DNA of 64,000 bases from an uncultured Candidatus Micrarchaeota archaeon (GTDB taxonomy: Archaea; Micrarchaeota; Micrarchaeia; Micrarchaeales; Micrarchaeaceae), in contig CAVXKI010000002.1 in assembly GCA_963762345.1 (NCBI GenBank), positions 370-64,369 on the forward strand. The letters are read 5' to 3'. The translations under genes and the position numbers were made by a program. Within the stretch, counting starts at the first letter, position 1; the number at the start of each line of letters is the position of its first letter. Shown piece after piece: positions 6,394 to 23,355 of the stretch. The notes beneath the pieces are model-generated. The model worked only from the letters and a program-made list of their open reading frames with translations, was not told the origin of the DNA and made no database searches.

Positions 6394-6483
6394 CGTTTTA
6401 ATTCCTCCTGTTTTTTGAGATAAATTACTATTACCCCTATAGGTATAATGTTAATCAAAATAAAAGAGGGTGTCAACCCTTTT

Positions 6484-6745: not shown

Positions 6746-6785
6746 CTATTTACCTCCTTTCCTTTATCCATTGGTTTTAAAATGT

Positions 6786-7127: not shown

Positions 7128-7139
7128 TTAAAACCTCCT

Positions 7140-7216: not shown

Positions 7217-7895
7217 TCATTCGAAATCCACAGTCGCATTGAAGAGCCTTCCTGTCTCCGCTATTATCTTCTGCTCGTCTATGCTCAGTATATTCCTTAT
7301 CGTAAGGTCGTCAACGCCAAGTCTCCTCAGGACATTGCTTATCTTGTCCCTGTCGAGGTCCGCCTTTTCAAGAAGGCCTGCAAACGTTATCACGTTTACG
7401 TGCCTGTGCGCCTTCTCCATGTTGTAAGAAGGGTCCATGTTTTTCTCGCTCACTCCGAATGCTAGCGAGTATCCTCTTCAGCTCCTGCCTGCTTATCACA
7501 AATGTGTCGAGTTTTGGCATTTCCGATGTCATCATGTCTTCGATATTATTCTCGTTATCAGCAGATCGTCGAGGCTTATGCTCTTTAGGAACGATACGAT
7601 ATTCGTGTTCGGCACTCCGCTTGCCTTCAGCTCCTGCACGAAGTCTATCATCTTTATGTTCCTGCCGCCTGTGTCCATTCTTGCGAAGAGCGCCTCTATG
7701 TTCTCAGTGCTATATGTTGAACTCTATGAACTTGTTCTTCAGTTCTTCCTTCTCGAACTGGTAGTCCTTCTGTATTATTCCAGCGGAAAGCTCGCCTGCG
7801 TGAGTATGTCAGACAAGGTCTATCGTGTACACGTAGAGCGGCTCCTCTCCGTGTATCCTTTCGAGCACAAAGGTCTGCGGGAACCTGATGCGCTG
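7217..7895 (-). pseudogene. tandem helical-repeat region (separate small gene or C-terminal extension of the ATPase), several frame breaks
   Basis: Stitching minus-strand frames gives RIRFPQTFVLERIHGEEPLYVYTIDLV(TGA)HTHAGELSAGIIQKDYQFEKEELKNKFIEFNI / STENIEALFARMDTGGRNIKMIDFVQELKASGVPNTNIVSFLKSISLDDLLITRII / ...SYNMEKAHRHVNVITFAGLLEKADLDRDKISNVLRRLGVDDLTIRNIL...ATVDFE. Two ~50-aa repeats align with each other. Confidence 0.45.
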
Positions 7896-9102
7896 TCTGG
7901 AAGGCCATCTCCACCGCTGCCTGGCCAACTCCGAAGTTGCTTATCTCTGTCCTTATGAAGTTGGAGAAGTTGAGCGACCCCTGCAGGTAGTTGAGGAACT
8001 TCTCGAATTTTATTCTCAGTATGAAGCTGGTGCCGACGTTCGAGAAGATCGCCTCGTTTATGTCGGTCGGGTTCTGCGATGCGACTATCAGGCCGAACTG
8101 GTACTTCCTTCCCTCCCTCACTATTGTTATGGCGTCGCTTTTCTCATCGCTCGCCACCTTCCACGCCTCGTCAAGCACTACCAGCGCCTTGAGCCCCTTC
8201 GTCTCGCTGAATCCTTCTGCCCTCATCTTTTCCTTCAGCGTCTGCAATATGAAAAGCGCCGCAAGGGTCCTGAACTTCTCATCGGGAAGCGACGAAAGGT
8301 CTATGTCAACCAGACCGGAGTCTATCAGTTTTCCGAGGTCGAGCGTGCTCTTCCTTGCGAAATAGTCCTCGCCCTCTCTCGCAAATTGCCTAAGCCTGTA
8401 TATCGCGTTCTCGAGCTCCGCTGGATATTCGTATGTGCCCTCCTGCAGCTTCTCCTCCAGCAGCGCTATGACGTTCTTGAGGGTCGGCGCGTCCTTGCCC
8501 ATCGGCGGCTTCTCCGCGACATAGAACCCTGCGTTGGTGTACGACTGCTCTATCGCCTCTTCCGTGAGCCTCTTTTGTTCTGGATATGTGCCTATGTCAG
8601 TGAGTATGTCCAGCGAGCTCATGATCTGCTTGACCCTGTCGAGCGGCTTCATCCCCGCAAGGTCCATTATGTTCAGATAGTCGCCCTTCGAAAATGCGAC
8701 GACAACGCCTCCTGTCTGCTTTGTCCATGCCTTGTACTCCCCGGCCCAGTCTATTATTATCGCATTCGTGTTCCAGATGTAGCTCGCCCTTATCAGCAGC
8801 GTCTTCACGAAGTAGCTTTTACCGGCTCCGGTTATTCCAACAACTGAAATGTGCGGGTTTGTAAGGTTGGAGAAAGTCCAGCTGAACGGTATCTTGAATA
8901 TTTTTGTAGTGCCTATGTAGATGGACTGCAACGGGTCGTTTATCAGTATCTCTGCCGGCGGCTCCGGAGGCCTCGAGAGGAACGACCTCCTTGCTATCTG
9001 GCTGCTCATTATGTGCTGCAGTTTCAACATTGACATTGTTTTCACTTTATTTGTTTTCTGTACTTTATATATTCTCATCTCTGCGTATCGAAATTCCGGC
9101 AT
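7696..9102 (-). CDS. VirB4/HerA-FtsK superfamily (DUF87-type) P-loop ATPase, motor domain only
   Basis: Walker A GITGAGKS (8815-8838), Walker B LVVLDEAW (8161-8184), REGRKYQFGLIVASQNPTDI. The true start is probably MSMLKLQ at 9036. After about 7893 the ORF-track frame turns to junk and the real frame shifts (see 7217-7895). Confidence 0.75.
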   Translation of the reverse strand: MPEFRYAEMRIYKVQKTNKVKTMSMLKLQHIMSSQIARRSFLSRPPEPPAEILINDPLQSIYIGTTKIFKIPFSWTFSNLTNPHISVVGITGAGKSYFVKTLLIRASYIWNTNAIIIDWAGEYKAWTKQTGGVVVAFSKGDYLNIMDLAGMKPLDRVKQIMSSLDILTDIGTYPEQKRLTEEAIEQSYTNAGFYVAEKPPMGKDAPTLKNVIALLEEKLQEGTYEYPAELENAIYRLRQFAREGEDYFARKSTLDLGKLIDSGLVDIDLSSLPDEKFRTLAALFILQTLKEKMRAEGFSETKGLKALVVLDEAWKVASDEKSDAITIVREGRKYQFGLIVASQNPTDINEAIFSNVGTSFILRIKFEKFLNYLQGSLNFSNFIRTEISNFGVGQAAVEMAFQTAHQVPADLCARKDTRRGAALRVHDRPCLTYSRRRAFRWNNTEGLPVREGRTEEQVHRVQHIALRT

Positions 9103-9906
9103 ATCCTGATACTCGTAGGCAGCGCGAAGCTGTACTTGAACAAAATGTAAAGCTCCCTTCCGACGACCCTGAGAAGCTGCAGGTCGAGCGAGCTGGCAGC
9201 TATCTGCAGCTGCTTTATCTGCGCTGACAGTGCGTCGAGCGCCGCCTTCTCGCTCACTCCAACTGCCGTTGTCTCCAGGTACATGAGGGATGCTATCGGC
9301 TTTTCGCCCTGCGATATGCTGTCTATCTGCGTCTGTATGACGTTCATCTTCCTTTGCATGTCGGCCACTATAACATCAGTGGTATTCTTGCTGCTCAGCG
9401 CCTTTGACATCTGAAATTCCTGGTATGACCTCTGGCCTTCGAGTTCGTCCCTGACCGTCTGTATGTCCCTGCCCTACCGTAATTGCATGGAACTTGAACG
9501 AGAATGGGACGCTCATCACTACTCTCTCCCATATGTCAACAGATTGCACCTGCTTCATCTCCTGTCCCTCCTCTTCGCGCTCCGCCTTGAACACGAACGA
9601 GAACAGGTTCCCGGTTATGTATCCAGTTGCATAGTAGAGCCCGTTCACGTTTTTCACTATTGCCTCCTGGCTCTTTGTTATCTTGTAGTCCTTGTACGGC
9701 CTGAATGTTATGCCGAGTGTGCTCGTTATCAGCGGGAAGAGGAGATAATCGGCGAAGTTCATGACGAGTATGTATGCAAGCAGCAGCGCGACGAGTATGA
9801 CCACAAGATATGTGTAGATGCCGCCGCCGAACGAGCCCAGGTTTGCTATGACGAGTACTGGGACAACGGCGCTGAATACCAGATAGACTATCTCTTCCTC
9901 GTCCAT
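9075..9906 (-). pseudogene. 2-TM membrane protein with cytoplasmic domain (one frameshift near 9455-9470)
   Basis: ORFs 9376-9906 and 9075-9410 join as ...FKFHAITVGQ-DIQTVRDELEGQRSYQEFQMSKALSS... when one base is removed. The N-terminus has two TM helices. It overlaps the ATPase start. Confidence 0.6.
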
Positions 9907-10739
9907 TATATGACCTCTTCTCTTATCGACTTCGTTATCTGCTCCGTTGCAGTGGAATATGGTATCAGGTATTCGGGCTCGACAAACCTGAGTATCGCGT
10001 TTCCTGTTATGATGCTCGGTGTCACGCCGAATGTCGCCGCTATTCCGGACATTGCCTCCCGAGATCTTTGCTGCACTCCTGTTATCGCCTGGAATTCCGT
10101 CGAGCCAGTTGCAGAGAGCGATGCGTAGCTCACCAATTCAAGCGACACGACCTTGCTGACGTTGTCAAGCGTGTGGTGCCACATGCTGGACTTGCCCCTT
10201 GTCCTGCTGATTTCCTGGTCTGTTGCATTCTTCTGCAACAGGCCTGCTTCCTCGAGCTCTGCGGCGCTTGCCGTGCTTCTCAGCGTGTTTATGTAGTCGT
10301 CCTTGTTCATTATGTGGAGCTGGGTTGTGAGCCTCATCGGCGCTTCGCTCGAGCTCACAATGCGCGAGAGCTGGTTCGTGAATGTAAGCTTCTCTTCATC
10401 GGTCATCTCTGTGCCAGACCTGTATACGGGAATCTTTATGAAGACGGTTGCGATGAAGTCCTCTCCTTCCTTGTGTATTATCGAATCTGCTGTAGATGAT
10501 AGCCAGTATGCGTCCTCTGTGTTCAGCACCAGGTCGCGCTTCCTTTGCTTGAGTATGGGCCCGAGCAGGTAGGAATAGAATCTTGTTGAAAAGGCGCACG
10601 CGTCGAAGAATAGCACTGCCAGGAGTATCAGTATCTTGTAGACCGGCGCCAGGAAATTCGGCGATATCGAGATTATCGTGATTAGCAGCACTATCGATAT
10701 GCCGAGGAATCCAAGAAATATGAATATGCGATTATCCAT
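9906..10739 (-). CDS. 2-TM membrane protein with cytoplasmic domain, same architecture as 9075-9906
   Basis: 277 aa with two N-terminal TM helices, then a soluble domain. Stop/start overlaps the next gene at 9906. Confidence 0.6.
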   Translation of the reverse strand: MDNRIFIFLGFLGISIVLLITIISISPNFLAPVYKILILLAVLFFDACAFSTRFYSYLLGPILKQRKRDLVLNTEDAYWLSSTADSIIHKEGEDFIATVFIKIPVYRSGTEMTDEEKLTFTNQLSRIVSSSEAPMRLTTQLHIMNKDDYINTLRSTASAAELEEAGLLQKNATDQEISRTRGKSSMWHHTLDNVSKVVSLELVSYASLSATGSTEFQAITGVQQRSREAMSGIAATFGVTPSIITGNAILRFVEPEYLIPYSTATEQITKSIREEVI

Positions 10740-10783
10740 TAAGCTCAGCTTTTATTGGAGATAAATATGGGATAAAACCTTTT

Positions 10784-10801
10784 AAGCTGTTTGCACAGCT
10801 T
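10784..10801 (-). promoter_or_regulatory. intergenic hairpin between the membrane-protein block and the ATPase block
   Basis: AAGCTGT-ttgc-ACAGCTT perfect 7-bp stem in the only sizeable gap (10740-10835) of this part of the array. ATATTTAT lies downstream on the minus strand. Confidence 0.3.
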
Positions 10802-10835
10802 GATTGACCTGTTTGCTTTGCACTTGTCTGCGACG

Positions 10836-12110
10836 CTATATGAAACCAGCCCTTAGTCTCCCTCCCATCTGCGCGGATGCGCCCACGAAGTTCGCTACCT
10901 GCGTCACGAAGGTGTAGGTCAGCGCTGTAATTAGTATGGGATAGAATATCGCCTGCAGCCAGAGCGGTGACAGCACGCTCGCTATGGGGCCGAATGTTGA
11001 ACATATGAATGATGGGAAGACGTTGACGCCGCCGCACGCATTGTAACTGAGCGTTGTCGGATACGGATTCACGCTTGGAGAGTAGAGTAGCGCAAAAAGT
11101 ACAGGCGCGACTACAAAGAAGCCTATTCCTGTTGAGATCAGTATGCCGCCCAAAGCCCTGGTCGGGAGGAATGCCCTGAATATTATTCCTAGGGTCACGA
11201 ACACCGGGCCTACGAACGAGAAGAACAGTATTAGATAATACAGGGCCCATAGCACAAAGAGCCCATCGTTCAGGAATGCCAAGACCACGGTCTCGGGAAG
11301 CTGCAGGTCAGCGTATATGAAGGTCCTATAGATGGGCAGCACGTTGCCCAACGCAAACTGGACGATAGCGGTAAATATGTTGCTGGATATGTAACCGCTC
11401 CCTGCCGAAATTTGCACTGCCCATGTGGTGTACGCGCTGAGGAACACGAAGTTCGTGCTTCCCGTGACCGCGCCGCCGACAGGATTGATTAATGCGGGCG
11501 TGGAGCCCGAGACGTATGGGCACGGAGGCCCGGATGGCTGGCTGCCTGTGCCGAGCGGAGGTGGGGGCGGAGGCGCCTGTCCTATTGAAGAACCGCCATT
11601 CCCGTAAAGCACGCAGTCGTATTCTATTTGTATGGTGTTGATGGTGTAAAGTATCGCGCTTGTCGAGAGCACATACGGATCCGTAGTTGCTGGAACAGAG
11701 CTGCCTGGCGAGAACAGGCCCAACAAAGTCACGGGTATGGTCTGGACAAGGAGGCCTGCGATCAGCAGCGCAGAGCCCACGATTATGGCTGTGGCTAGCG
11801 CCTCGTAGAGCTCACCTACGCCGAAGCTTCTTATCCTTTCGTTCTTCGATGCGGTGCCGACCATGAATATTATCGCGGCTATGGTAAATGACAGAAGAAC
11901 AGCAATGACAGCTATAGGCAGCATGCCGTTCCACGTGTTGCATATCTCGTTCTGTATCGGCTGGCCTGTCGGTGCAGCGCAGCTGCTGGGTCCTGCTGCA
12001 CCCGCCGTGAGAGAAATATATGAAAGCATAATTATTGCAATCACTGATAGACGCAACGCTAGGGAAGAGATGAATTTTTTATTGATATGCCTTGAGTTCA
12101 TTTCCATCAT
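10836..12110 (-). CDS. polytopic membrane protein, paralog family member 1 (candidate VirB6/CedA-like channel component)
   Basis: 424 aa with a signal peptide, the TM-loop-TM motif SKNERIRSFGVGELYEALATAII, a large ecto-loop with a PPPPPP tract, and the family motif GIIFRAFLPTRALGGILISTGIGFFVVAP. Confidence 0.6.
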   Translation of the reverse strand: MMEMNSRHINKKFISSLALRLSVIAIIMLSYISLTAGAAGPSSCAAPTGQPIQNEICNTWNGMLPIAVIAVLLSFTIAAIIFMVGTASKNERIRSFGVGELYEALATAIIVGSALLIAGLLVQTIPVTLLGLFSPGSSVPATTDPYVLSTSAILYTINTIQIEYDCVLYGNGGSSIGQAPPPPPPLGTGSQPSGPPCPYVSGSTPALINPVGGAVTGSTNFVFLSAYTTWAVQISAGSGYISSNIFTAIVQFALGNVLPIYRTFIYADLQLPETVVLAFLNDGLFVLWALYYLILFFSFVGPVFVTLGIIFRAFLPTRALGGILISTGIGFFVVAPVLFALLYSPSVNPYPTTLSYNACGGVNVFPSFICSTFGPIASVLSPLWLQAIFYPILITALTYTFVTQVANFVGASAQMGGRLRAGFI

Positions 12111-13243
12111 ATTACATTTATAAGCAATGACATGAAGTCTACTCTCTCTCCTATCGACTTCGAGAAGTCGACTATGAAAGCATCTACTATTGTGAAATTG
12201 AGGAATGGTATGAACGTCAATCCAGCTATGGCCATCGCCAGCGGGAAGATCCAGCTTCCTGCCGGAGGCGCCTGGTAGAATATCGCCTCTACTGTAGAGG
12301 TGATCAGGCTCGTTATTATCGCGGAGCCCGTTATGCTGCTCGACCCGTTGACATTCGCCATGCTAAGCTGCGTGTTCACGAATCCGTATGTCATAATTGT
12401 CATCAGTGGATATATGATGCCCAAGCCTATGCCCATGGCTATCATCGCGCCGCCGAAGGTCCTTGAGAAGCCGAACGACCTCGCTATCACGCCAAGAGAA
12501 ACGAAAAACGCAAGCCAGAGCAGCGAGCCCGAGATAAGCAGCACCTGCACCTGGAGCAGCACGAACAATATCAGTATGCTTGAGAAGACAGTAGCGAACA
12601 TGACCTCGGCGGGGATGGGTATGAAGCTGCCCAAGCTGCCGCTAGCGGAAGCTACGGTACTTCCATCCTTTAGGGTACTGGTGATGGATACGCCGGTTGT
12701 GACACCCATGTATACCGTCACCTCATAAATCCCTTCGAAGACGCCGTACGTAAAGTGGTTGAACTCTGATATGTCGCATGTTGCAAGTGTGAATATGTCA
12801 AATGCTTGAGAACAGTCAAACTCTCCTGTATATACTGTGGCAGTGGGTAGGAGCCCTATTGCTGATAGCACTGGCTGCGGGTTGAGGAAGAAGATGAAGA
12901 CGAAGAAGAGGAATATCAGTATGAAGATGATTGACAGTATCGCCTCGTATATTTGGAAGCGCGCCCATCCCCTGGCGTTCGGGCTGTCTATCAGCCCAGC
13001 AAGCATGTAGACGATAACTGCAAACGCTATCACTATCAGGATCACGAGCGCGGCAACGCCGACCCACGAACCTGGAAGTATAGGCAGCGTGTATTGCAGG
13101 ATTGCGATTCCCGATTTTGGAACGAGCCCCGTACTCTGTGCGCCAGACACAGCGGCCGATGCCAGCAGCGCCATCAGCAGGAGCGCTGCGCTGCGCTTCC
13201 ACGACAGGGCGCCTGCAATCTTATTCTTTATTTTTTCTATCAT
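12107..13243 (-). CDS. polytopic membrane protein, paralog 2
   Basis: 378 aa with a signal peptide (AAVSGAQS), SPNARGWARFQIYEAILSIIF, and the family motif GVIARSFGFSRTFGGAMIAMGIGLGIIYP. 4-nt overlap with the downstream gene. Confidence 0.6.
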   Translation of the reverse strand: MIEKIKNKIAGALSWKRSAALLLMALLASAAVSGAQSTGLVPKSGIAILQYTLPILPGSWVGVAALVILIVIAFAVIVYMLAGLIDSPNARGWARFQIYEAILSIIFILIFLFFVFIFFLNPQPVLSAIGLLPTATVYTGEFDCSQAFDIFTLATCDISEFNHFTYGVFEGIYEVTVYMGVTTGVSITSTLKDGSTVASASGSLGSFIPIPAEVMFATVFSSILILFVLLQVQVLLISGSLLWLAFFVSLGVIARSFGFSRTFGGAMIAMGIGLGIIYPLMTIMTYGFVNTQLSMANVNGSSSITGSAIITSLITSTVEAIFYQAPPAGSWIFPLAMAIAGLTFIPFLNFTIVDAFIVDFSKSIGERVDFMSLLINVI

Positions 13244-13253
13244 CTAGATCATT

Positions 13254-14388
13254 TCATATCAATTTTCTAAGCGTGTGCTGCGAACTGAGGCTCGGCGAGC
13301 CCAGCAGGTCCCCTACCGCCTCCATGAAATCGAATGATAATATCAGCGACAGCAGGAAAGCGACCACAATGTAAAACATCTGGCCTACGACCGTGCCTAT
13401 GAGTTCCTCGATCACGTTGAGCCCGATGAGGTTTGACTGCGGCACCCAGAAGTTTGAACTTGGAGAGACTGAGCCCAGCAGCGACTGTGTAGAGTAGGAG
13501 GAGAACTGTATGGACGTGAGGCTCACCTGCCCCAGCAGCAGGTACAGCATCAGCGGGAAGAGCACGTAGAACGCGATGAAGAATCCGAGGAATGCGCCGC
13601 CTGCCGCCCTGCTGAACGGGAGAGTACGGAACACGATCCCGAGATACAGGAACAGTGGCGCTATCTTGAAGAAGATGGCGAGTATAGCTGCGCCTGCCAA
13701 CGGTATGACAAACATGAAGTAAAGTATGTTCATAAGGTCGAATATAGGTATCAGCACGAAACCGTATCCACGGTACGGTTGCACTAAGAATCCGTAGTTG
13801 TTGTCTTTTGCGCTCAACTGTAAGCTCGATACAAATGACACCTCATCGCTTACAACATACATGGACAGTATGTCGTTTATCACCGTTATGCTGGCGCCTC
13901 CGAGGTTTCCGCAGTCCGTAGTGAATATGCTAGGCGACAGCGTGCCGGGGCTGATCGCAAGATAGTTGCTAGACGTCGGCAGCGAGCCTACCGCGAGGAA
14001 TGTGCCGAGGAATATCAGCACGATCAGCCCGGTGAGCGCGACCTCGCCGATCTCGGTCCTTCCCAAAAGAGACGAGCCTGCCCACCTTGAACGCGGATCC
14101 TATCAGGTAACATAACGCAGCTATGTTCAGCATGACGAGCAGCGCAAGCAATGATATGAATATTACGTTGTTGGCGCCGACAACGGCCGGGCTTGTGCCG
14201 GACCCGCTCAGCGGGATGGAGCCGGAGAAAAGGCTGGAACAGAAATCGCCGGCGGTATACGCTGGCGCTGAGTACTGCGCTCCCGCGACGGTTGTGACGG
14301 CGAGAAGCGCGATAAGCCCTAGCGCTGCTAGCTTGAGCGAACGCGGCACGGTTTTTTGCTTGCTAGTTTTCATTTTCATAATCGCCAC
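13254..14388 (-). pseudogene. polytopic membrane protein, paralog 3 (one frameshift near 14066-14072)
   Basis: ORFs 13969-14388 and 13254-14066 join as ...IGSAFKVGRLVS-LLGRTEIGEVALTGLIV... across a T4/A4 run. Family motif GIVFRTLPFSRAAGGAFLGFFIAFYVLFP. Confidence 0.6.
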
Positions 14389-16034
14389 TATACAAATCTT
14401 GAAAGCCCTGCCAGCTGGACGTCACCTCCCAGAAGGCCGGACAGGCCGAGCATCGATGCTATCGTTATCAGTATGTTGAGTATCGGGAGGAAATATCCCG
14501 CCACTCCGTCTACCCCGTATATCTGTGGAACTGAAAAGTCCATGCCCTCCCCTCCTGAGAATATTCCCAGCCCTGTTGTGGGCGAGGTCTGGCCAGTATA
14601 ACCGCCATAGTTGCAGAACTCTACCGTGCCCTGCGCCGCATTGGCGAAGCTCTGCTCGGTGTCGACGCTTGTGCTCACACCGTAGAAGAATCCGCCTATG
14701 GCTCCTGCCGGATTTGATGCGAATGAAGATATCAGGCCCGCTGCATTGTTGGCGAGGTCTCCCCACCAGAATGTGGTTGTGAGCGCCATATCCTCTGCGT
14801 TATTGTTCACGACTTCCCCGAGGCTGCCGCCGCCGGGGTAGCAGCCGCAGTCCTGCGCCACGCCTGCCAGGCTCGGCAGCGCGAAATAGTTCACCTGGTA
14901 TGAATATGCATTACTGCCGCAGAAAGTCAGCTGCGTCGAAGGCGATGACGGGAAGAGCGCCGGGTTGTTGGATGCAAGGTACTCTATACCCAGCACTGTT
15001 GGATAGATCAGGATTGCGCTTAGCGCTACCGCAATGAGAATGCCCCCGAGTTTCCTCGTGAAGAACAGCCCCCTAAGCGCAAGGCCGGCGAACAGCAGCC
15101 AAGGCCATGAGTAAAGCAGTATGTCCTCGAAGAGCAGCTGCATGTCTGCTATGACCAGTGAGTTATAGAGCAGGCCAGATATGTTTTGTATCGGCTTGTC
15201 GAACTGATCTGCGCCGTACAGCGGCCTTGCAGCCCACTGCACATAAAGGTTCGGTGAAGGCGCAAAAGGTATTGGCGGCAGGAAATTGACGAATGGAAGC
15301 GATGAGCATACGCCGAGTCCGCCGACGCAGATTGCAATGGTCGGAGTGAAAGTGTTCAGATATTCTAGATATGCATCGATTATGAATGCATCGTTGAGGC
15401 CCTGGCCCAGCTGGTTCATGACGTTTGCGTTTATAACCATTGCGGATGCGAGCGGGAACTCTGCGAGCGTTGTGCCGTCGTCGCCTATGTTGGCGCCGCT
15501 GTCAGTTACGGTTGCAACTATGCTGCAGGGAGTGGGTGCATGTGACGCCGGTGCCGATCCGGAAGTCGGCAGCAGGAACGGTCCGCCGAGCAGAGATGAT
15601 ACTGTGTCGAAGGTGGCGGTGCCGAACACTGGCAATCCGTTAGGGGTTGGCGGACACCCAAGTTGCTGCGACATCGTATAGATCTGCCCCTGCTGTAGGA
15701 CAGTGGGATATCCCGGAATGCCCTGCACGGAGTTATAGTATATGGTGCCGAAGGCGAGCAGGAAAGCGAGTATCAGCCCTCCTATTATTGCTGTGCCGAC
15801 GACCTGGAGGGCTTCGGCCCTGGCGCCAGCCTTCAGCTGCTGGCTGGAGAGCAGCGCGCCTATCATGTACCAGATCGCGACTATCAGCGCATCTATGGTT
15901 ATTGCAAGTATGACTAGGGGAAACATGTATGATTGCGCAGTTGTGAACGCGCCGGTCGGCGCAGCGGTTGCAAGCAGCGCCAGGCTCCCGCTTGCGCCGG
16001 AAAGCGCAGATACCAAGGTGCTTGTCAATATCAT
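14388..16034 (-). CDS. polytopic membrane protein, paralog 4
   Basis: 548 aa with SSQQLKAGARAEALQVVGTAIIGG, a long ecto-loop, and the family motif GLALRGLFFTRKLGGILIAVALSAILIYP. Confidence 0.6.
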   Translation of the reverse strand: MILTSTLVSALSGASGSLALLATAAPTGAFTTAQSYMFPLVILAITIDALIVAIWYMIGALLSSQQLKAGARAEALQVVGTAIIGGLILAFLLAFGTIYYNSVQGIPGYPTVLQQGQIYTMSQQLGCPPTPNGLPVFGTATFDTVSSLLGGPFLLPTSGSAPASHAPTPCSIVATVTDSGANIGDDGTTLAEFPLASAMVINANVMNQLGQGLNDAFIIDAYLEYLNTFTPTIAICVGGLGVCSSLPFVNFLPPIPFAPSPNLYVQWAARPLYGADQFDKPIQNISGLLYNSLVIADMQLLFEDILLYSWPWLLFAGLALRGLFFTRKLGGILIAVALSAILIYPTVLGIEYLASNNPALFPSSPSTQLTFCGSNAYSYQVNYFALPSLAGVAQDCGCYPGGGSLGEVVNNNAEDMALTTTFWWGDLANNAAGLISSFASNPAGAIGGFFYGVSTSVDTEQSFANAAQGTVEFCNYGGYTGQTSPTTGLGIFSGGEGMDFSVPQIYGVDGVAGYFLPILNILITIASMLGLSGLLGGDVQLAGLSRFV

Positions 16035-16039
16035 TCACA

Positions 16040-17353
16040 TCACATCAAACATTTGACCAGAAGCTCGCCGCCCCCTCTATCCCACCGTTGAGCGCTTTCG
16101 CGAGGCCTGCCGCGAATCCGAGCGTTACCGTCAAGTTCATCGCGAACAGAATCGTAACTGAAAACAGGAATTCGGCAAGCTCCAGCGATATGTATTGCTA
16201 CTGACTGTATGGTGTCGTTGCCGTCGAATCCCAACGTGTTCGTGATTGAGTCTGCACTCTGGCCGAACAGCGAAGTCAGCGTACCGATAACGGCGCTCGG
16301 CGACTGCGCGAATATGTTTGGCAGCTGGACGCCGAATACGGTCATGCTTCCGGCTACCGGCGGATTGAGGTTGCCGAACGTGTCGGGCGTGTACGAGACA
16401 TCGAGATAATTGAAAGAGGGATTGCACGTTGCCGTGACGACCTGGGCGCCGCCAGTGGCAGGGGGGATACATGGAGTGAACATCCATGCAATCGCGTAAG
16501 AATCGAAGACTATCATGACCGGATATATTATATAGAGCGCTATCGATGCAGCGAGCACAGAATTCGCGGCGAGCCTGAGCGTACCTCCCGAAAACGCCAG
16601 TGATCTTAGCACCAGCGCGACTGGAAGCAGCACGGTGAAGGCGGCCAGCTGCGACATCGCGAGTATGAGGTACTGCACAAGCATTATGGCAATGCCAAGA
16701 GTTGTGAGCGGCGCGTATGCGTCGATAAAGGCATCTGTGAGTATGCTGTACGGCGCGCCGAGATCAGCATTTATAGGTAATTCGAAGCAAACGCCGGTGA
16801 CCTGGCCCACGGAATCGGCGCATTCGGGGGGAATCTGGAAAGTGGGGATCACGTCGGATAACTGCGTGTAAACGGTATACCACATTAGGCTTATCAGGCC
16901 GAACGCATACGAATAAGCATCTACCTGTATCCCAAGCAATGGGCCTATGTTGAATGCGTACTGGCCGATGTAGCTTTCTGAATAGGAAAACGGATCGGAC
17001 TGCGCAGACAGGGGGATTACGGGCTGGGCGAGCGCCGGGCATGGGATCCCGTTGTTGCAGTAGCCGAAGGTGGGCGCGGCTGTCTTGATCGTCTGGGTCA
17101 TCTGCGCTATCGTGTTGCTTATCGAGGAGGTCGCGGAGCAGAGCGATGATGTCACGGCGAAAAGAAGCGCAAGTATGAAGATGCTTATGAATATCTGCGT
17201 CAGCTCTGTCTTTGTTATGCCTGTGATCTTTGCCTTCGTGTTTGATGGGAGGGTACGGCTCAGCAGGTATACGAGGGTGATGATCAGGATCGATATCAGT
17301 ATCACTATCCCGTTGATTCCGAGCCAACTTGTTCCATAGTCACAGGTTAACAT
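16040..17353 (-). CDS. polytopic membrane protein, paralog 5 (most divergent motif)
   Basis: 437 aa with SNTKAKITGITKTELTQIFISIF and the motif ALVLRSLAFSGGTLRLAANSVLAASIALYIIYP. Confidence 0.55.
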   Translation of the reverse strand: MLTCDYGTSWLGINGIVILISILIITLVYLLSRTLPSNTKAKITGITKTELTQIFISIFILALLFAVTSSLCSATSSISNTIAQMTQTIKTAAPTFGYCNNGIPCPALAQPVIPLSAQSDPFSYSESYIGQYAFNIGPLLGIQVDAYSYAFGLISLMWYTVYTQLSDVIPTFQIPPECADSVGQVTGVCFELPINADLGAPYSILTDAFIDAYAPLTTLGIAIMLVQYLILAMSQLAAFTVLLPVALVLRSLAFSGGTLRLAANSVLAASIALYIIYPVMIVFDSYAIAWMFTPCIPPATGGAQVVTATCNPSFNYLDVSYTPDTFGNLNPPVAGSMTVFGVQLPNIFAQSPSAVIGTLTSLFGQSADSITNTLGFDGNDTIQSVAIHIAGACRIPVFSYDSVRDELDGNARIRGRPRESAQRWDRGGGELLVKCLM

Positions 17354-17364
17354 TCATCATCACG

Positions 17365-18651
17365 CTATGAAATCTTCATGCCGCCTATGCCGAGCCTCAG
17401 GCTTCCGCCGAGAGCCCTCGCCGTGTTCGTTGCGACTATAATGCCGACTATGAGATCCAGCACGAACAGTATGAATTGCAATGCGACCACATTGGCATAG
17501 GCAAAGAATGGAGTGAGCACGTCGGTAAAGTCGCCGCTGAAGAATGCATCGAGTGCACCGTCATATCCTGCATTGAAAGCCGCAACATCGTTCTCGTTGG
17601 GGGGTTCGTTTGCATACAACGACGCAAGGATGGGCAACGTGGGTACCGCTGCCAGAGTGGTAACAACAGAGCACAAGCTAGGAATCAGCGGAGGGCACGG
17701 ATTTGCGGGTTGCGCTGTCGCGGCGTTAGGGAATGTCGGCGAAAAGAATGCAACAACCGGCGCATTGAACAGCGCCAGGAGCGCAGGATAAATAATCGCC
17801 ATCGCAATGGCCATCGCTATGAGGGATGCGCCAAGCGGCCTTAGAAACGGGGTAGCCCTGAATATCAGGCCTAGCGGCAGCAATATGCCGAGTGCTACCT
17901 GCACAAGCGCAGTGAAAAGGTATATTTGCGCACCTGTTACAATCAGCATCGGGAATATGAGTAGATTGAGCGCATCCTTTTCCACGGTCGCCCCTTTTGC
18001 TATGTTTGTATCAAGGATTTCGCTCTGGAACGGCTGGTAGGTCAGGCCGAGGTTTATGCTCCCCCATATCTTCCCGGCATCGAGCGCCACTGGCGGAATT
18101 GTATACGTGAAATACTGGTAGAGCCATATGCCCTTGAGAAATTCGGAGCCGAAAGCTATGCCCATGAGGTTGTTGTATGCCTCGTTCACATAGTTTATGG
18201 CACCTGGTCCGCTTGGATATCCCGAAAGGAAGTAGTATGCGTTCTGGTAGAGGTTGGTTATCCCAGCAGCGGGATTGGTGAGCGTGCCAAGCGGAGCGCC
18301 AGGCACCAGCGAGGTCAGAGCGCCGAAAACTATTATTATCGAGAGTATGGCGCCTACTATTAGTATGCTCTTCACCGATTCCCATAATTCTCCCCTGTAC
18401 CAGCCCTTGAACGTCTGTATGTCAAGGACTTCTCCCAAAAGGTATGCGAACGCAACCATGGTGAAAGATAGCAGCAGTGCGACGAACACGAAGGGAAGCG
18501 TCGAATTTATGCAATCGCTGAGGTTGGTCGACGACGCTGTTGATGTTGCACAGTAGAAGCTGCTGAATAAGGTCGGCTGTGCGGCAGTGACCCCCTGTAG
18601 TGCTATGAAAAAGATGATCGCGAGCAGTGCAAGTCTCATTTTTGAGAGCAT
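17365..18651 (-). CDS. polytopic membrane protein, paralog 6
   Basis: 428 aa with a signal peptide (GVTAAQP), DIQTFKGWYRGELWESVKSILIVG, and the motif GLIFRATPFLRPLGASLIAMAIAMAIIYP. Confidence 0.6.
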   Translation of the reverse strand: MLSKMRLALLAIIFFIALQGVTAAQPTLFSSFYCATSTASSTNLSDCINSTLPFVFVALLLSFTMVAFAYLLGEVLDIQTFKGWYRGELWESVKSILIVGAILSIIIVFGALTSLVPGAPLGTLTNPAAGITNLYQNAYYFLSGYPSGPGAINYVNEAYNNLMGIAFGSEFLKGIWLYQYFTYTIPPVALDAGKIWGSINLGLTYQPFQSEILDTNIAKGATVEKDALNLLIFPMLIVTGAQIYLFTALVQVALGILLPLGLIFRATPFLRPLGASLIAMAIAMAIIYPALLALFNAPVVAFFSPTFPNAATAQPANPCPPLIPSLCSVVTTLAAVPTLPILASLYANEPPNENDVAAFNAGYDGALDAFFSGDFTDVLTPFFAYANVVALQFILFVLDLIVGIIVATNTARALGGSLRLGIGGMKIS

Positions 18652-18709: not shown

Positions 18710-19441
18710 TCATCTCTTGAGAAGTCCGAACCTTCCCATGTACGATTGGCTCTGCAGCACGACAAGGAACGGCATTATGAACAGGGAATTGAACACAAGT
18801 ATCAGGTATCTTGAGAGTATGGTGCCTCCTATTGCTATGAAAAGATAGTCGAAAACGCTGAGCAGCACCAGCGCAACCACAAACCACAATATCACGAAGT
18901 CGAATCTCTTGAAGAAGAAGGAGGCGCTCTGCCTCATTGCGCGGTATATGCCCTTCTCATCGATTACTATTGAAGCGGGAGCATAGAAGAAGAACGGAAG
19001 TATCACAAGGGAGACTATGGCGCTTATGGACTCGGTGATGCCAAGCATGTACATCGCGACATCGAATAGCACCACTATCGCTGCGTAGAGGAGAAGGACT
19101 AAGAACACGTTTGCGGTGTACTTCTCAAGCCCGTCCATGACCTCTTTCCTTATCCTTGTCTGCGTCCTGCTGTGCTTCACTATCACGTTTATGGCAACCA
19201 TCGCAAAGCTCAGGAACAGCAGCGATAGGAGTATGGAGAATATTATTACCGCTGCGGTGAACGGAGTCAGGTTGATGAGGATGCTTGACAGCCTGAGGAA
19301 TATCGCGCCGATATCGTTGAAAGTTGGAAAGGAAGCGAATATGGGTATGAGGAATGCGATTATGAAGGATATGGAGAATACGAGTATCATTGGAAGGTGC
19401 GTTGTGTAGATCTCCATCGAGTACTTAAGCGTGTTCTTCAT
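18710..19441 (-). CDS. ~6-TM integral membrane protein, unknown function
   Basis: 243 aa, very hydrophobic. First gene after the pilin terminator. TTTATATT lies about 35 nt upstream of its ATG. Confidence 0.5.
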   Translation of the reverse strand: MKNTLKYSMEIYTTHLPMILVFSISFIIAFLIPIFASFPTFNDIGAIFLRLSSILINLTPFTAAVIIFSILLSLLFLSFAMVAINVIVKHSRTQTRIRKEVMDGLEKYTANVFLVLLLYAAIVVLFDVAMYMLGITESISAIVSLVILPFFFYAPASIVIDEKGIYRAMRQSASFFFKRFDFVILWFVVALVLLSVFDYLFIAIGGTILSRYLILVFNSLFIMPFLVVLQSQSYMGRFGLLKR

Positions 19442-19583: not shown

Positions 19584-19976
19584 TTAGCCGCACGAAGCCG
19601 CTGCGTTTGCTGTTACTCCGGAGACGCTGTTGCCTGTTATCACAGTCAGTATGAATGGCGCTATTACCGCAATTATTATGCCAATCACACCGCCGAGCAC
19701 CATACCCATGCCGTAACCCTGCATAGTGCCCTTGGTCTGTCCGGGCATTATGTGCGAGCCAGCATAGAGAGCGCCGCCTAATATCATCAGCATTAAGCCG
19801 ATTATGAATATGGCTGCGACCACGGAGCTGTATACGCTGTATATTGCACAGATCACATTGCTCGCCTGTGCCGAGGCTGTCGTCATAAACACGCTTGTCA
19901 GCGCTAGCAACATGAACAATACCCTAAACATATTGTTCGAGTTCAGCGCCAATAGCTTGTACATTATGTTTCCCAT
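19584..19976 (-). CDS. small VirB2/TrbC-like two-helix hairpin protein (candidate major pilin)
   Basis: Probable start MGNIMYK (19976) or later. Sec signal peptide ending ASAQA, then NVICAIYSVYSSVVAAIFIIGLMLMILGGALYAGSHIMPGQTKGTMQGYGMGMVLGGVIGIIIAVIAPFIL...AAASCG: TM, short basic loop, TM. Confidence 0.6.
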   Translation of the reverse strand: MGNIMYKLLALNSNNMFRVLFMLLALTSVFMTTASAQASNVICAIYSVYSSVVAAIFIIGLMLMILGGALYAGSHIMPGQTKGTMQGYGMGMVLGGVIGIIIAVIAPFILTVITGNSVSGVTANAAASCG

Positions 19977-20011
19977 ATTGGTACACCTTATATCTATATG
20001 ATATCTCGTAG

Positions 20012-20028
20012 ATATATTTAAATACCTA
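20012..20028 (-). promoter_or_regulatory. TATA box / promoter of the small pilin-like gene
   Basis: The minus strand reads GGTATTTAAATATATC about 45 nt upstream of ATG 19976, in the 20049-20067-flanked intergenic region. Confidence 0.45.
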
Positions 20029-20067
20029 TCTTTATGACGCTGCTGCACATGTTTGTCGTCTGCGAAT

Positions 20068-20514
20068 TCACTTCTTCGAGTAGAATTCGTAGGCGATTGC
20101 GGCGCCGACTATAGCCAGCATGCCCATCTGCACCCATGTGGTTATCGCAACGCTCAGGATCAGCGCGCCGACCCCTGCGGCGGATCCTCCTCCTGACACG
20201 TATGATATGAAGCTCTGCGAGTATGCTCCGAGAGCATAGCTCAGCACGACGTTCACGAAGCCGACTATAAGCGTGAGCATAAGAGCGGCTATCATGCTGA
20301 CCCAGAGGTAATCGAATGCCTTGGCAGACCTTCTTCCGACCCAGATGCCGAAGAGTATTGCGAGGAATAGCGTGTTGGTGCCCAGCATTATCTGCGTAGA
20401 TATGCTGAGATATGAAGTGAACCCTGCAACGAAGGCGATCACCTCGAACACGAGCCATACTATCAGCGGATACTTTATTATGTCAAGGTAGCTTTTTTTC
20501 ACCATAGAATCCAA
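20068..20514 (-). CDS. 4-TM small membrane protein, unknown function
   Basis: 148 aa, hydrophobic, with a Gly/Ala-rich loop SGGGSAAGVGA. Lies between the giant hairpin proteins and the small pilin gene. Confidence 0.5.
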   Translation of the reverse strand: MDSMVKKSYLDIIKYPLIVWLVFEVIAFVAGFTSYLSISTQIMLGTNTLFLAILFGIWVGRRSAKAFDYLWVSMIAALMLTLIVGFVNVVLSYALGAYSQSFISYVSGGGSAAGVGALILSVAITTWVQMGMLAIVGAAIAYEFYSKK

Positions 20515-20556: not shown

Positions 20557-23355
20557 TCAAACCGAGCACGCGGCGAGCAGGTTCGTGAGCTGGCCATAGA
20601 CGGTAATCGATACGACTACATAAGAGAACGCAGCGAGTCCCGCGCCTACAAGTCCGCCTAGAATCATGCCCATCGCATAACCCTGTATTGTGCCCCTCGC
20701 CTGGGCAGGGAGCAGCTGCCCGAGTTCGTAGAGAACCGCGCCAAGCAGCAGCAGGGTGATTGACAGTACGGCGAGTATCGCCTCTATCTGCGCGAAGATC
20801 GTACAGAGGCTGGATGTGAGCGGCGCCGCGTTCGCTGTTCCGCCGTTCGATGATCCTATATTCGACTGCGATGGATTTATGGTAAGCGCCCCCGCGCCCA
20901 CATAGCCATTGTCGTACATAAGGCAATAGAGATATGTGCCTGGAGGGAAGTCGGCGGGGCTTTGTGAGCCTATGCTGCATTCGACTCCTTGTGGCTGTTG
21001 CGACTCGCTTTGCGTGCCGCTCTGTGTGCCTGCGCAGTCAACGTAGCCCGGATGGGTCGGATCCTCGGTGCATCCTGGAGGAACGTATGGCTGGCAGTTG
21101 TCTGTCGATACTCCTGCACCGTAGCCGCACGTCGACCCTGGGAGCGCTGGTGTCTGCGACGTGCATGAGTATGGCGCTGTTGTGCTCGGCAGATAGCCCA
21201 TATAACAGCCGTTCGCATCGCCCGGCGAATCCGTACACGGACCATATGCAGGGGACAGAGTGGCGGTGCATGCCTGCTGCGCGTTTATGAGATTTGTGTT
21301 AGTATATGGAATCACATACAGCCTCAGGGGCACGCTCGAGAGGCCATATGCATTTGCAGTGATGGTCGCGCTTGATCCCTGTTGTATTGTGTATGGATTG
21401 ATGTTGACCGAGCCCAAAGCAGTGAGCGGTGCTCCAGTTGAGCCGATGAATGTTGTCGGCGCCTGCTCCGTGCTCTGGCCGGTGGTGCACTGGCCTGCCC
21501 CATTGCACGTTATGCCAGCGCTCGCGAAGAATATTGCAAGGCTGGCTCCATCACCAGCAGTCTGGGTGGGCGGAGGGGACGCATAGTAGCCGAGCGTCGG
21601 GTTCACGCCGTAGTCGTATCCTTGTGACGGGTTTGATGGATACTGCAGCTGCAGCGAATCGGGGCCGAAGCCGCCAGAGCCGCTTGGAGTGAAATAATCA
21701 TACGCGCAGACCAGGTAACTGCCGGCATGACCCTGCGGCAGGTAGGTCTGCGGATCTATAGATGCGGTGTCGGATGGCCCGCTGCTTCCGGAGAATGTTG
21801 TTATTAGGCACGGGAGCGAGGTGCCGGCGTTAGAGCAGTAGTCATCCTGTGCCTGCAACACCAATGGAGGCACGCACCCGTTTGAATCGGTACCGCTCGC
21901 AAGCTCGAAGTAGCAGTTGTATCCGCCGTTCAGGCTCCCGCCGCACAGCGATGTTGATGACGGAGCGGACTGGCCTATGCTTGTGAAGTAGTTCACGAAC
22001 GGTGATTTCGGCACTTCGTCCGGATTTAGCGTAACCTGCAGCGGCGCGGTGGTCGAAAGCGGGAATGTTGATGGACCGAATGTGAGGAACAGCCCATAGC
22101 TCGGACCCCACATCGCGTTTGCCGCAACAACGATGTTGCCGACAACAGGGTTAGCCTGGCCTTGTGGAACCAACAGCCCGCTGCCGGACGGGCTGGGCGC
22201 AAGGATCTGGTAGCTGCCGCATATATTATATGTGCCCTGGGGCGTGTATATCGTGTTCGTGAAATAGCTGAGCTGGCAGTACGGAGTCGCAATGTTGTTG
22301 TTCATGTCAAAGCTGTTGAACACCTGCGCTGCATCGGTGATGCAAGGAGGCCACGGGCGTATTGTTCCATACGCATTTATCTGCACCTGATATTGAATTC
22401 CATTGATGTTCCTGTACTGCAGCCCGGTTGTCAGGAAGGTAGTATCCTCAGAGCAGAAGACATTGATGAAGCCGTCGTTTTCCTGTGCTGGCGATGATGC
22501 TAGTGTATCCGGTACTACGCACGGCGTTCCCTGCGCAGACATCTGAACGAAGCTCTCCGTGTTGCACGATACTCCTGAATAATTGAAATCTATGTCTGAG
22601 GATGCGCCAGGAAGCAGGACTGTTGGGCCGATTGTAAGTTTCTCTGATGTGCCGGATACGAGAGAAAGCGTGGCGCCTCCGGCATATTCGGGGATAGTGG
22701 GAGGGGGCGAGGAATAGCCGGCTCCTGAACACAGGGAGGGTCCCCCGTATGTGTTGCACTGCGGCGGATTTGTGCCTGCGCAGAAAAGGCTCGACCCGTA
22801 GGTGCAGTCCGGGACACCTGTCTGGCAAGCGGGCTGAACATTATCGTATATGCAGGACTCAAGCGAGGGATCAAGGACTCCTATGAAATAGTAGTTTACA
22901 TTTGGCAGGAGGCCCTGCGGCGTCTGCACCTGCAGCGTTATGGATGGATTTGGGGACCAGACGGCATTGGCGAGCACGCACGCATCGCTTATTGTTAGAC
23001 CTGCGTTGCCGCACGTCGGCAATCCATAAACTGTGAGAGCGGCGATGGTCCAATAATCATTCGGATTGTTGATGACTATGGAGTTTGTAGATGGCAGGAA
23101 TATCAGGAATGCGTTGTCATTATCGGCAAAAACTCCGCATCCGCTGCTCTCACCATTGCACGTAGACCCTGGTGGTGTTGTTGCAAATGTCACTGTAGCC
23201 TGCCCACCCACAGCTATCGTAGGTGGACTGAAGGTCACTCCGCCAACAGCAAGATCTGACGGGGGCGGTTGCACCGCGCCCGCGCTGTGCGCGAAAAGGA
23301 GCAGCAGCAGTAGGAACAGCGGCGCGAAGTGTTTTATTTTTTTATTCAATGTCAT
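20557..23355 (-). CDS. giant secreted Cys-rich protein with C-terminal VirB2-like hairpin module (932 aa)
   Basis: Signal peptide (LLLLLFAHSAGA). Ectodomain of ~830 aa rich in C, G, T, S, P, with recurring G-[TS]-Y-x-x-C-x-Y motifs. C-terminus LCTIFAQIEAILAVLSITLLLLGAVLYELGQLLPAQARGTIQGYAMGMILGGLVG...LLAACSV. Confidence 0.65.
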   Translation of the reverse strand: MTLNKKIKHFAPLFLLLLLLFAHSAGAVQPPPSDLAVGGVTFSPPTIAVGGQATVTFATTPPGSTCNGESSGCGVFADNDNAFLIFLPSTNSIVINNPNDYWTIAALTVYGLPTCGNAGLTISDACVLANAVWSPNPSITLQVQTPQGLLPNVNYYFIGVLDPSLESCIYDNVQPACQTGVPDCTYGSSLFCAGTNPPQCNTYGGPSLCSGAGYSSPPPTIPEYAGGATLSLVSGTSEKLTIGPTVLLPGASSDIDFNYSGVSCNTESFVQMSAQGTPCVVPDTLASSPAQENDGFINVFCSEDTTFLTTGLQYRNINGIQYQVQINAYGTIRPWPPCITDAAQVFNSFDMNNNIATPYCQLSYFTNTIYTPQGTYNICGSYQILAPSPSGSGLLVPQGQANPVVGNIVVAANAMWGPSYGLFLTFGPSTFPLSTTAPLQVTLNPDEVPKSPFVNYFTSIGQSAPSSTSLCGGSLNGGYNCYFELASGTDSNGCVPPLVLQAQDDYCSNAGTSLPCLITTFSGSSGPSDTASIDPQTYLPQGHAGSYLVCAYDYFTPSGSGGFGPDSLQLQYPSNPSQGYDYGVNPTLGYYASPPPTQTAGDGASLAIFFASAGITCNGAGQCTTGQSTEQAPTTFIGSTGAPLTALGSVNINPYTIQQGSSATITANAYGLSSVPLRLYVIPYTNTNLINAQQACTATLSPAYGPCTDSPGDANGCYMGYLPSTTAPYSCTSQTPALPGSTCGYGAGVSTDNCQPYVPPGCTEDPTHPGYVDCAGTQSGTQSESQQPQGVECSIGSQSPADFPPGTYLYCLMYDNGYVGAGALTINPSQSNIGSSNGGTANAAPLTSSLCTIFAQIEAILAVLSITLLLLGAVLYELGQLLPAQARGTIQGYAMGMILGGLVGAGLAAFSYVVVSITVYGQLTNLLAACSV

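Follow-up and report, generated by a model that had tools for sequence, protein, structure and literature searches.

Six paralogous membrane proteins encoded in a fixed order beside pilin and VirB4-like ATPase genes in Micrarchaeota: a candidate membrane core of a type IV secretion-related machine

A 64,000-nucleotide stretch of DNA from an uncultured Candidatus Micrarchaeota archaeon (GenBank assembly GCA_963762345.1, contig CAVXKI010000002.1, positions 370 to 64,369), referred to here as the window, includes six consecutive minus-strand genes coding for polytopic membrane proteins. All six open reading frames (ORFs) were recovered between nucleotides 10836 and 18651, where an earlier inspection of the DNA (the original prediction) had placed a run of six consecutive genes. 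The names g6 to g1 correspond to array positions 1 to 6, and the scores given below were obtained with a hidden Markov model (HMM) of the family and with one profile per array position.

17365-18651, minus strand: g6, position-1 paralog, 428 amino acids (aa), intact; family HMM 218 bits, position-1 profile 363 bits
16045-17353, minus strand: g5, position-2 paralog, frameshifted, without signal peptide and with a pilin-like N-terminal hairpin; position-2 profile 361 bits
14388-16034, minus strand: g4, position-3 paralog, 548 aa, intact, with the longest ecto-loops; family HMM 186 bits, position-3 profile 358 bits
13254-14388, minus strand: g3, position-4 paralog, frameshifted, two pieces matching the family HMM; position-4 profile 321 bits
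12107-13243, minus strand: g2, position-5 paralog, 378 aa, intact; family HMM 225 bits, position-5 profile 369 bits
10836-12110, minus strand: g1, position-6 paralog, 424 aa, intact; family HMM 288 bits, position-6 profile 302 bits

Since the spacing between consecutive genes is only -4 to +11 nucleotides, the six can be considered a tight operon. The frameshift in g3, which had been repaired in the original prediction to give a 378-aa protein, was confirmed at a T4/G3 run near 14066-14070, and the repaired length is 377 aa. For g5 the 437 aa given before are those of the ORF (16040-17353), but a second frameshift near 16185-16200 had been overlooked, and as a consequence the Arg-rich end of the ORF, ~45 residues long, is read in the wrong frame. 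The true C-terminus of g5, including a transmembrane (TM) helix ('LAEFLFSVTILFAMNLTVTLGFAAGLAKALNGGIEGAASFWSNV'), is found in another frame at 16048-16197 and agrees with the intact ortholog of the related locus L002; both frame pieces, 16043-17353 and 16048-16197, match the family HMM. A signal peptide had been described as usual in these proteins, and this stands for g1, g2, g3, and g6, which have signal-peptide-like N-termini; that of g4 is weak and g5 has none.

Direct BLAST comparisons among the six showed weak similarities of 25-45 bits, with ~20-30% identity over short stretches. A profile built from g1 orthologs only gave 38.7-49.9 bits for g6, g3, g2, and g4, compared with a maximum of 6.7 bits for 1800 shuffled sequences, and left g5 undetected at 6.8 bits, practically the shuffle maximum. 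Taken alone, these values are what would be expected if the resemblance were compositional, a product of the hydrophobic bias of TM segments and a short chance motif with no common descent. On the other hand, when profiles of each array position, made of the orthologs from 60 genomes, were compared by hhalign, all 15 orthogroup pairs including those with the g5 type matched over more than 210 collinear columns, with 96.3-99.6% probability and E values between 1e-9 and 1e-23. Near-invariant residues are found at equivalent positions in 366 sequences, and other TM proteins encoded in the same loci (tm243 and p277, described below) show no match. The 15 profile comparisons and the conserved columns refute a compositional or chance origin of the likeness, to which we assign a negligible chance, and the six window genes can be taken as true paralogs of one family, as had been proposed.

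The shared loop motif of the original prediction is real. In an alignment of the 366 sequences the signature G-x3-R-x5-R-x2-G...P is near-invariant: using g1 numbering, P336 is conserved in 365 sequences, R312 in 357, and R318 in 344 with Lys in another 14. Glycines G308, G321, and G322 are kept in ~303-313 of them, and the position of the 'Glu helix', E100, is occupied by Glu in 301 and by Gln in 54. The g5-type proteins have an insertion of 4-6 residues between both signature arginines.

The copy number of the family was surveyed by scanning with the family HMM the six-frame ORFs of all fetched loci, which included 79 related loci from GTDB species representatives. Exactly six tandem members were present in all 63 loci with full flanks (60 non-redundant, all from other species); the 21 loci with fewer than six members were each cut by a contig end, and none had seven. 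For 357 of 360 proteins the best match outside the own locus occupied the equivalent position of the array, and identities were 34-44% within an array position versus 24-27% between positions, the position-6 orthogroup (g1) being the best conserved. Because the best outside matches sit at the same array position, the six paralogs appear to have diverged before the sampled Micrarchaeota did and to have retained their order since; they can be regarded as ancient and non-redundant. An array of six had seemed unusual in the original prediction, which had suggested such a survey; it is not peculiar to this genome but conserved across Micrarchaeota, as 60 of 60 complete non-redundant loci have it.

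Candidatus Micrarchaeota is the source of the homologs that have a name and, with few exceptions, of the 79 related loci; these include one from Ca. Micrarchaeum sp. A_DKE, whose genome is complete (L044, NZ_CP060530.1), and one from a Mancarchaeum metagenome-assembled genome (MAG). A gene for an archaeal S-layer protein (998 aa) is also found in the window. An exhaustive HMM search of 1.84 billion cluster representatives retrieved 2,796 members at E<=1e-3 and 1,918 at E<=1e-10, which corresponds to a family of ~2,800 clusters at 50% identity. Neither Pfam nor NCBIfam has a model matching the window's six, and the Pfam scan of 84 diverse members found no domain over the core, only immunoglobulin-like (Ig-like) or SprB N-terminal extensions in a few of them. 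The family profile had no significant match among PDB sequences, the best one being the TM segment of the renin receptor (E 0.24). A match to a well-known unrelated transporter or permease, which would have spoken against the original prediction, was thus not found in Pfam, NCBIfam, or PDB. Some members are much longer than those of the window: the position-6 protein of L065 has 1253 aa, the position-5 proteins of L040 and L043 have ~845 aa, with N-terminal extensions, and P0111 (901 aa), with similarity to g5 as well as to g4, seems to be a fusion of neighbouring members. These extended and fused proteins suggest surface-exposed adhesive add-ons.

Hydropathy, an AlphaFold2 (AF2) model of g1, and residue statistics over the 366 sequences agree on the topology of the family, which had been predicted to be polytopic with a large outward loop. 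The predicted arrangement is N-out with five TM helices, C-in, and two Cys-bearing outer loops. Following a signal peptide, when there is one, the proteins consist of a short outer segment, TM1, a basic inner loop, a Glu-capped TM2, outer domain 1, TM3, the R-x5-R inner loop, TM4 with the invariant Pro, outer domain 2, TM5, and a basic inner tail. The content of Lys plus Arg per 100 residues is 17.8 (TM1-TM2 loop), 26.1 (R-x5-R loop), and 8.8 in the inner segments and 1.2-2.2 in the outer ones, and cysteines are essentially confined to outer segments. Outer domain 1 (mean 95 aa) and outer domain 2 (mean 75 aa) are the variable parts of the six, in agreement with the variable ecto-loop noticed before, and the most conserved residues are cytoplasmic (R312 and R318) or located in TM4 (P336). 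In the g1 model, which was built on 136 sequences (predicted local distance difference test, pLDDT, 79.3; predicted TM-score, pTM, 0.76), TM3 is the end of a 69-residue helix that starts well outside the membrane. This helix together with an extension of TM2 and a further helix suggests a helical stalk.

The genes that surround the array in the window are, with the exception of the enzymes and the small membrane protein mentioned later, the following.

20557-29278, minus strand: four large secreted Cys/Ser/Thr/Pro-rich proteins of 932, 499, 674, and 759 aa, the C-terminus of each being a complete pilin module
19584-20048, minus strand: small VirB2/TrbC-like pilin, a signal peptide and a two-helix hairpin with a basic loop
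18710-19441, minus strand: tm243, 243-aa polytopic (~6-TM) protein between the pilin and the six; phmmer 186 bits to the L002 ortholog
9906-10739, minus strand: p277a, 277 aa, N-terminal TM hairpin; phmmer 233 bits to the L002 ortholog
9075-9906, minus strand: p277b, paralog of p277a, frameshifted near 9440-9470
7535-9102, minus strand: VirB4/HerA-superfamily ATPase, orthologs of ~506 aa, here in three frame pieces
7217-7453, minus strand: d100, small conserved downstream gene and the last locus gene present; phmmer 64 bits

The usual order in the related loci is one to three pilin genes, tm243, the six, p277a and p277b, the gene for the ~506-aa ATPase, and genes for proteins of ~100, ~134, ~243, and ~790 aa. 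Upstream of the six, ~56 of 60 loci have the pilin gene and tm243; of the 58 complete loci in which there is room for the ATPase module, 50 have it immediately downstream. The original prediction had put the array next to a VirB4-type ATPase gene; this gene does belong to the same set, but it is not adjacent, two genes for 277-aa proteins being located between it and g1.

The ATPase matches above the Pfam cutoffs PF01935 (DUF87, 63.6 bits), PF12846 (AAA_10, 50.4 bits), and PF19044 (TraG P-loop, 41.3 bits). Its best NCBIfam models are CedB (7.8e-21) and CedD (2.1e-19), followed by VirB4-type and HerA models, all of them far below the equivalog cutoffs, and the nearest plasmid relatives are the TraC/VirB4 proteins of conjugative plasmids with ~23% identity. 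The 506-aa protein lacks the canonical N-terminal domain of VirB4. The p277 proteins, which are paralogous to each other (hhalign 99.9%) and consist each of an N-terminal TM hairpin followed by a soluble domain, could be the membrane anchors of this ATPase devoid of the usual N-terminal domain. The L002 pair is located at 11177-12843, and in the window p277b is split into a frame piece at 9379-10137, equivalent to residues 2-147 of the ortholog, and another at 9078-9473, equivalent to residues 145-267. Comparison of p277 and the other accessory proteins with single sequences of R388 VirB3, VirB4, VirB5, and VirB8, a test of low power, showed no similarity, and a Pfam scan of 63 accessory proteins produced only coiled-coil or winged-helix noise and no type IV secretion system (T4SS) family.

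The window pilin itself has no direct match to PF04956 (TrbC/VirB2). Its L002 ortholog, with 42% identity, matches this family at 32.2 bits versus a cutoff of 27.9, and among the small pilin orthologs 24 of 61 match PF04956 (best 1e-7) and 6 match PF18895; the pilin profile found no TedC, CedA1, or VirB2 among PDB sequences. The pilin HMM scored 108-114 bits on each of the C-termini of the four large secreted proteins, which may be adhesins or tip proteins incorporated into the pilus. Long pilin fusions, of 298-679 aa, occur also in other Micrarchaeota loci. Two conserved cysteines flank the hairpin of the pilin module, one immediately preceding helix 1 and the other immediately following helix 2; both are predicted to be outside the cell, and a disulfide between them would tie the ends together. 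This pair of cysteines recalls the head-to-tail cyclisation known for TrbC and TrhA pilins. Between the small pilin gene and the first pilin-fusion gene there is a gene for a 148-aa four-TM protein (20068-20514, minus strand) without a family match.

Since the locus includes both a VirB2/TrbC-type pilin and a VirB4/HerA-type ATPase, it can be considered by homology to be related to type IV secretion systems and to belong with the reduced archaeal ones, Ced and Ted. The latter comprise a VirB2-like pilin, a VirB6-like membrane protein, and a VirB4-like ATPase (PMC9905601). As in those cases (Beltran et al. 2023, PMC9905601) the gene set is chromosomal and of the domesticated T4SS-like type, and CedB is the best NCBIfam match of the locus ATPase. 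Unlike Ced and Ted, the pilins are here often fused to giant ectodomains.

Among the components of such systems, it is VirB6/TrbL (PF04610) and CedA that the six resemble in position and topology, as the original prediction had pointed out. Like VirB6/TrbL they are polytopic proteins encoded between a VirB2/TrbC-type pilin and a VirB4/HerA-type ATPase, and their five TM helices in an N-out, C-in arrangement with a large external loop, obtained when the suggested topology prediction was run, are also in common. VirB6 proteins have a periplasmic N-terminus, ~5 TM helices, a large external loop, and a cytoplasmic C-terminus. The same topology was taken from Fig. 3 of PMC2653234. The differences are that the six have a signature of their own, G-x3-R-x5-R-x2-GG...P together with the Glu-capped TM2, that their copy number is exactly six in a fixed order, and that they belong to an archaeal host with a single membrane and an S-layer. 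CedA and TedA, in turn, are products of single genes with ~7 TM helices, in contrast to six genes for proteins with five TM helices plus large ecto-loops.

A further link to these systems was found in the position-2 paralogs. The pilin HMM, when used to search 4948 ORFs, matched the N-terminal hairpin of the g5-type proteins of several genomes with E values of 3.9e-6 to 2e-4 and no other membrane ORF. The hairpin shares with the pilin the pattern G-A-x-Y-A-x5-P-x3-R-x3-G, and by hhalign the pilin and position-2 profiles match with 79% probability (E 1.6e-5), while reversed controls reached at most 14.8%. The N-terminus of CedA is reported to resemble CedA1, and VirB6 to resemble VirB2 (PMC9905601); the pilin-like hairpin, here significant for the position-2 paralogs only, parallels both relationships. 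The paralogs have in common with the VirB2/TrbC pilins (PF04956, PF18895) a hairpin of TM1, basic loop, and TM2 at the N-terminus. Because an ectodomain and three more TM helices follow it, they would not be extractable into a filament as a pilin is.

The interpretation that we favour, with a probability of about 55%, is that each of the six proteins is a non-redundant subunit of the membrane core of a Ced/Ted-like machine of Micrarchaeota, a core that would be hetero-oligomeric and play a VirB6-like role. That they assemble into a membrane hetero-oligomer is deduced from the constancy of their number and order and from the compactness of the operon; the original prediction had mentioned it as possible, and the fixed number and order in the 60 complete loci make it a reasonable proposal. 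Each subunit would be composed of a pilin-like N-terminal hairpin, a variable outward domain, and three more TM helices. The conserved cytoplasmic face, i.e. the TM3-TM4 loop with its two arginines, would contact the ATPase module made of the two p277 anchors and a VirB4-like hexamer. The outward helical domains would then act in pilus biogenesis, as the base or stalk for the extraction and polymerisation of the VirB2-like pilins and the pilin-fused giant proteins, or else in transport, with a substrate passing through them. In either case the role would equal that of VirB6, CedA, or TedA in the known systems.

Several results weigh against this interpretation. First, PF04610 is matched neither by the window's six (E<=1) nor by the 84 diverse members (E<=0.01), while the TrwI relatives of the comparison set all carry it. 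The VirB6 profile available for hhalign, composed of R388 TrwI and 120 relatives, is shallow (effective number of sequences, Neff, 3.3). In the HMM-HMM comparison with TrbL/VirB6 that the original prediction had suggested, the family scored 16.3 (0.2%) against it versus 24.8 for a reversed control, with a method that is insensitive at such a distance, and the per-position profiles, which also stayed below reversed controls, reached at most 1.6% with the same shallow profile. Pairs known to be homologous from Pfam also give low values, 1.4% for the pilin against the single sequence of TrwL and 10.6% for the ATPase against that of TrwK, so that the VirB6 score is no clear negative. Foldseek comparison of the pLDDT-79 model with the PDB produced nothing with E<1. 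Chains of TrwI, the VirB6 solved in 7o3v, 8rt9, and 8rtd, appeared at ranks 8, 10, and 32 with E values of 2.5-6.3 and TM-scores of 0.16-0.31; a top rank of TrwI/VirB6 obtained with a weaker, pLDDT-64 model (E 0.34) was dropped because the better model gave E 2.5. VirB6 has a conserved essential Trp in its TM/cytoplasmic region (PMC2653234), and the family-wide invariant columns contain no Trp, the VirB6-equivalent position being undefined without a valid alignment to VirB6. The proposal that the six are members of the TrbL/VirB6 family is therefore unsupported by Pfam, profile-profile, and fold comparisons. The link to the pilin, moreover, is significant for one of the six orthogroups only: the other five profiles gave at most 1.5% by hhalign, and the pooled family gave a non-significant 0.7%, the comparison being informative only after splitting the six orthogroups.

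A second group of contrary observations comes from the loci themselves. In eight Micrarchaeota loci (L022, L041, L050, L057, L059, L068, L069, and L074) with 5.8-10 kb of downstream flank the ATPase module is absent or inverted; five of them (L041, L057, L059, L068, and L074) keep the pilin gene and tm243 upstream, and L069 keeps tm243 with no pilin detected. The arrays of L022, a Micrarchaeaceae MAG, and of L086 and L087 also have six tandem members, but genes for the pilin, the ATPase, tm243, and p277 are all absent from the 10 kb on either side. L086 (6549-13303) and L087 (7417-14930) are divergent loci with 55-56% GC annotated as 'uncultured archaeon', one of them on a 1.17-Mb contig, and their members have no one-to-one match to the Micrarchaeota array positions. 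The recurrence of exactly six in these three settings is striking. Genes for an 882-aa M23-peptidase protein and for a 1555-aa protein are located beside the L086 array. As the eight Micrarchaeota loci without the downstream ATPase and L086 and L087 show, the array of six can be genomically separated from the pilus machine.

These separated arrays, and the fact that no homology of the six to any T4SS membrane component was found, would be accounted for if the six formed a self-contained hetero-oligomeric channel or uptake pore for, e.g., host metabolites, lipids, or nucleic acids, a pore whose association with the pilus genes is only loose and that needs no VirB4-like ATPase. We consider this main alternative unlikely. 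The six are in most cases found beside the pilin, tm243, and ATPase genes in the proportions given above, the position-2 hairpin is pilin-like, and no transporter family matches the six either; in addition, absence within 10 kb does not mean absence from the genome.

The position of tm243 is a third point against a VirB6-like role of the six. It could be that tm243 is the true equivalent of VirB6, CedA, and TedA, and that the six are accessory subunits, spanning the envelope or recognising the host; they would be pilin-derived stalk, adhesin, or docking components anchored in the membrane, with variable ectodomains that set host specificity. An analogy for host specificity through variable surface parts is found in the amplified TrwJ and TrwL of Bartonella. 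With ~6 TM helices tm243 is of a CedA-like size, and it comes right after the pilin gene as tedA is directly downstream of tedC (PMC9905601), a slot that here is held by tm243 (18710-19441) and not by the six, which come after it. The variability of the ecto-loops and the Ig-like or SprB extensions at the N-terminus of some members (up to 1253 aa) would also suit accessory surface proteins. However, by hhalign tm243 is unlike the pilin, TrwI, and the six, and NCBIfam has no model for it, its assignment being positional only; and the conservation of the six is highest at the cytoplasmic R312 and R318 and at P336 of TM4, not outside, which fits a core part better than an adhesin. This distribution of the roles seems to us quite improbable.

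A set of paralogs in the place of a single VirB6-type protein has a precedent. Rickettsia has five RvhB6 paralogs (RvhB6a-e) that are diverged, have variable flanking regions, and are conserved across the genus (PMC2653234), i.e. another multi-paralog set of this type in a host-dependent organism. Patescibacteria (CPR), which are ultrasmall host-dependent episymbionts and the counterparts of DPANN among bacteria, have a chromosomal and near-universal T4SS with VirB2-like pilins and VirB4 (PMC12102498). The Micrarchaeota locus is similarly a chromosomal T4SS-related system of host-dependent episymbionts with these two components, while that of Patescibacteria is bacterial, derived from MPF-FATA, and has a recognisable single-copy VirB6/PrgH, no paralog hexad being described in PMC12102498.

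The hetero-oligomeric core that we favour could be given a more definite shape, a 1:1:1:1:1:1 hetero-hexameric membrane ring that docks the ATPase and serves as a host-symbiont conduit, which as a joint claim is rather improbable. Such a ring would be a prokaryotic counterpart of the paralog rings MCM2-7 or Rpt1-6. One protomer of the VirB4-like ATPase hexamer would be docked by each R-x5-R loop, a barrel through the S-layer space would be made by the long outward helices, and the whole would be the Micrarchaeota side of a conduit for the import of DNA, lipids, or metabolites from the host. Cryo-electron tomography of a co-culture with the Micrarchaeon ARM-1 left a nanotube and a 21-nm 'docking barrel' under the S-layer unidentified (PMC11329633), and the ring could be this docking barrel. 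A gene for an archaeal S-layer protein (998 aa) is also found in the window.

The copy of the locus present in the window (7535-18651) is damaged. Frame lesions cluster in it, in g3, g5, p277b, and at the 3' end of the ATPase gene, whose last ~120 codons include about four frame switches within ~150 nucleotides. The locus ends with d100, there is a sharp step in the GC content at ~7250, from ~50% to ~34%, and the genes d134, d243, and d790 are missing; in their place there is a block (1-7250, 36% GC versus ~50% elsewhere) with sulfur-transfer genes, which includes a split MFS transporter, TauE, an MBL-rhodanese fusion, DsrE-like proteins, and three small rhodaneses. It may have been acquired horizontally or reflect a chimeric join in the assembly. 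As the long genes elsewhere in the window are intact (S-layer protein, SerRS, carbamoyltransferase, and the pilin fusions), the lesions and the missing genes would be compatible with a decaying, non-functional remnant, which is possible but somewhat doubtful. The g3 and p277b frameshifts are located at short homopolymer runs, split ATPase ORFs occur also in other MAGs (L017, L025, and L078) as would be expected of consensus errors, and the coding sequences are otherwise well conserved, with 300-369 bits to the position profiles. For the first two reasons, consensus errors or a chimeric join are as likely an explanation as real decay of the locus.

The window and the L002 locus are both located between the same carbamoyltransferase and PMT genes, and no relatives of the family were found among the viral contigs of IMG/VR or the plasmids of PLSDB. 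Because the same housekeeping neighbours recur and plasmid or viral relatives were not found, the locus is best considered chromosomal, and an origin from a mobile element was rejected. In the window a radical SAM/SPASM gene (minus strand) and a family-2 glycosyltransferase gene (plus strand) occupy 29334-31212, between the pilin-fusion genes and the PMT/carbamoyltransferase genes, and modification of the Cys-rich surface proteins is a possible role of their products. In L002 the carbamoyltransferase gene is followed directly by the gene for the pilin, and the two enzyme genes are not found in that interval.

For Micrarchaeota, as for other DPANN archaea, physical contact with a host is a necessity, and few of the molecules responsible for this contact have been identified. 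No earlier description of the locus or the family was found in our literature searches; the locus does not correspond to the secretion system that Makarova et al. 2015 predicted, and the main paper on the cultured Ca. Micrarchaeum harzensis makes no mention of pili or a secretion system. While multi-paralog VirB6 sets in Rickettsia and T4SS-related systems in Patescibacteria were known, the protein family is new. With the pilin and the VirB4/CedB-like ATPase it defines a conserved chromosomal gene set in ~80 Micrarchaeota species representatives, and it provides concrete candidate proteins in the complete A_DKE genome. For the evolution of T4SSs, the locus would represent a third archaeal branch beside Ced and Ted, as well as another example, Rickettsiales being the first, of a host-dependent organism with a stable multi-paralog membrane core, and the pilin-like hairpin would be further support for a hairpin ancestor common to the polytopic core proteins and the pilins. 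The strict hexad raises the question of whether a homo-oligomeric ring has been replaced by a hetero-oligomer in a prokaryote. Because this fixed hexad is usually encoded next to the genes for the pilin and the motor of a pilus machine of the conjugation-like type, the six proteins are prime, previously undescribed candidates for the apparatus through which these cells would make contact with their hosts.

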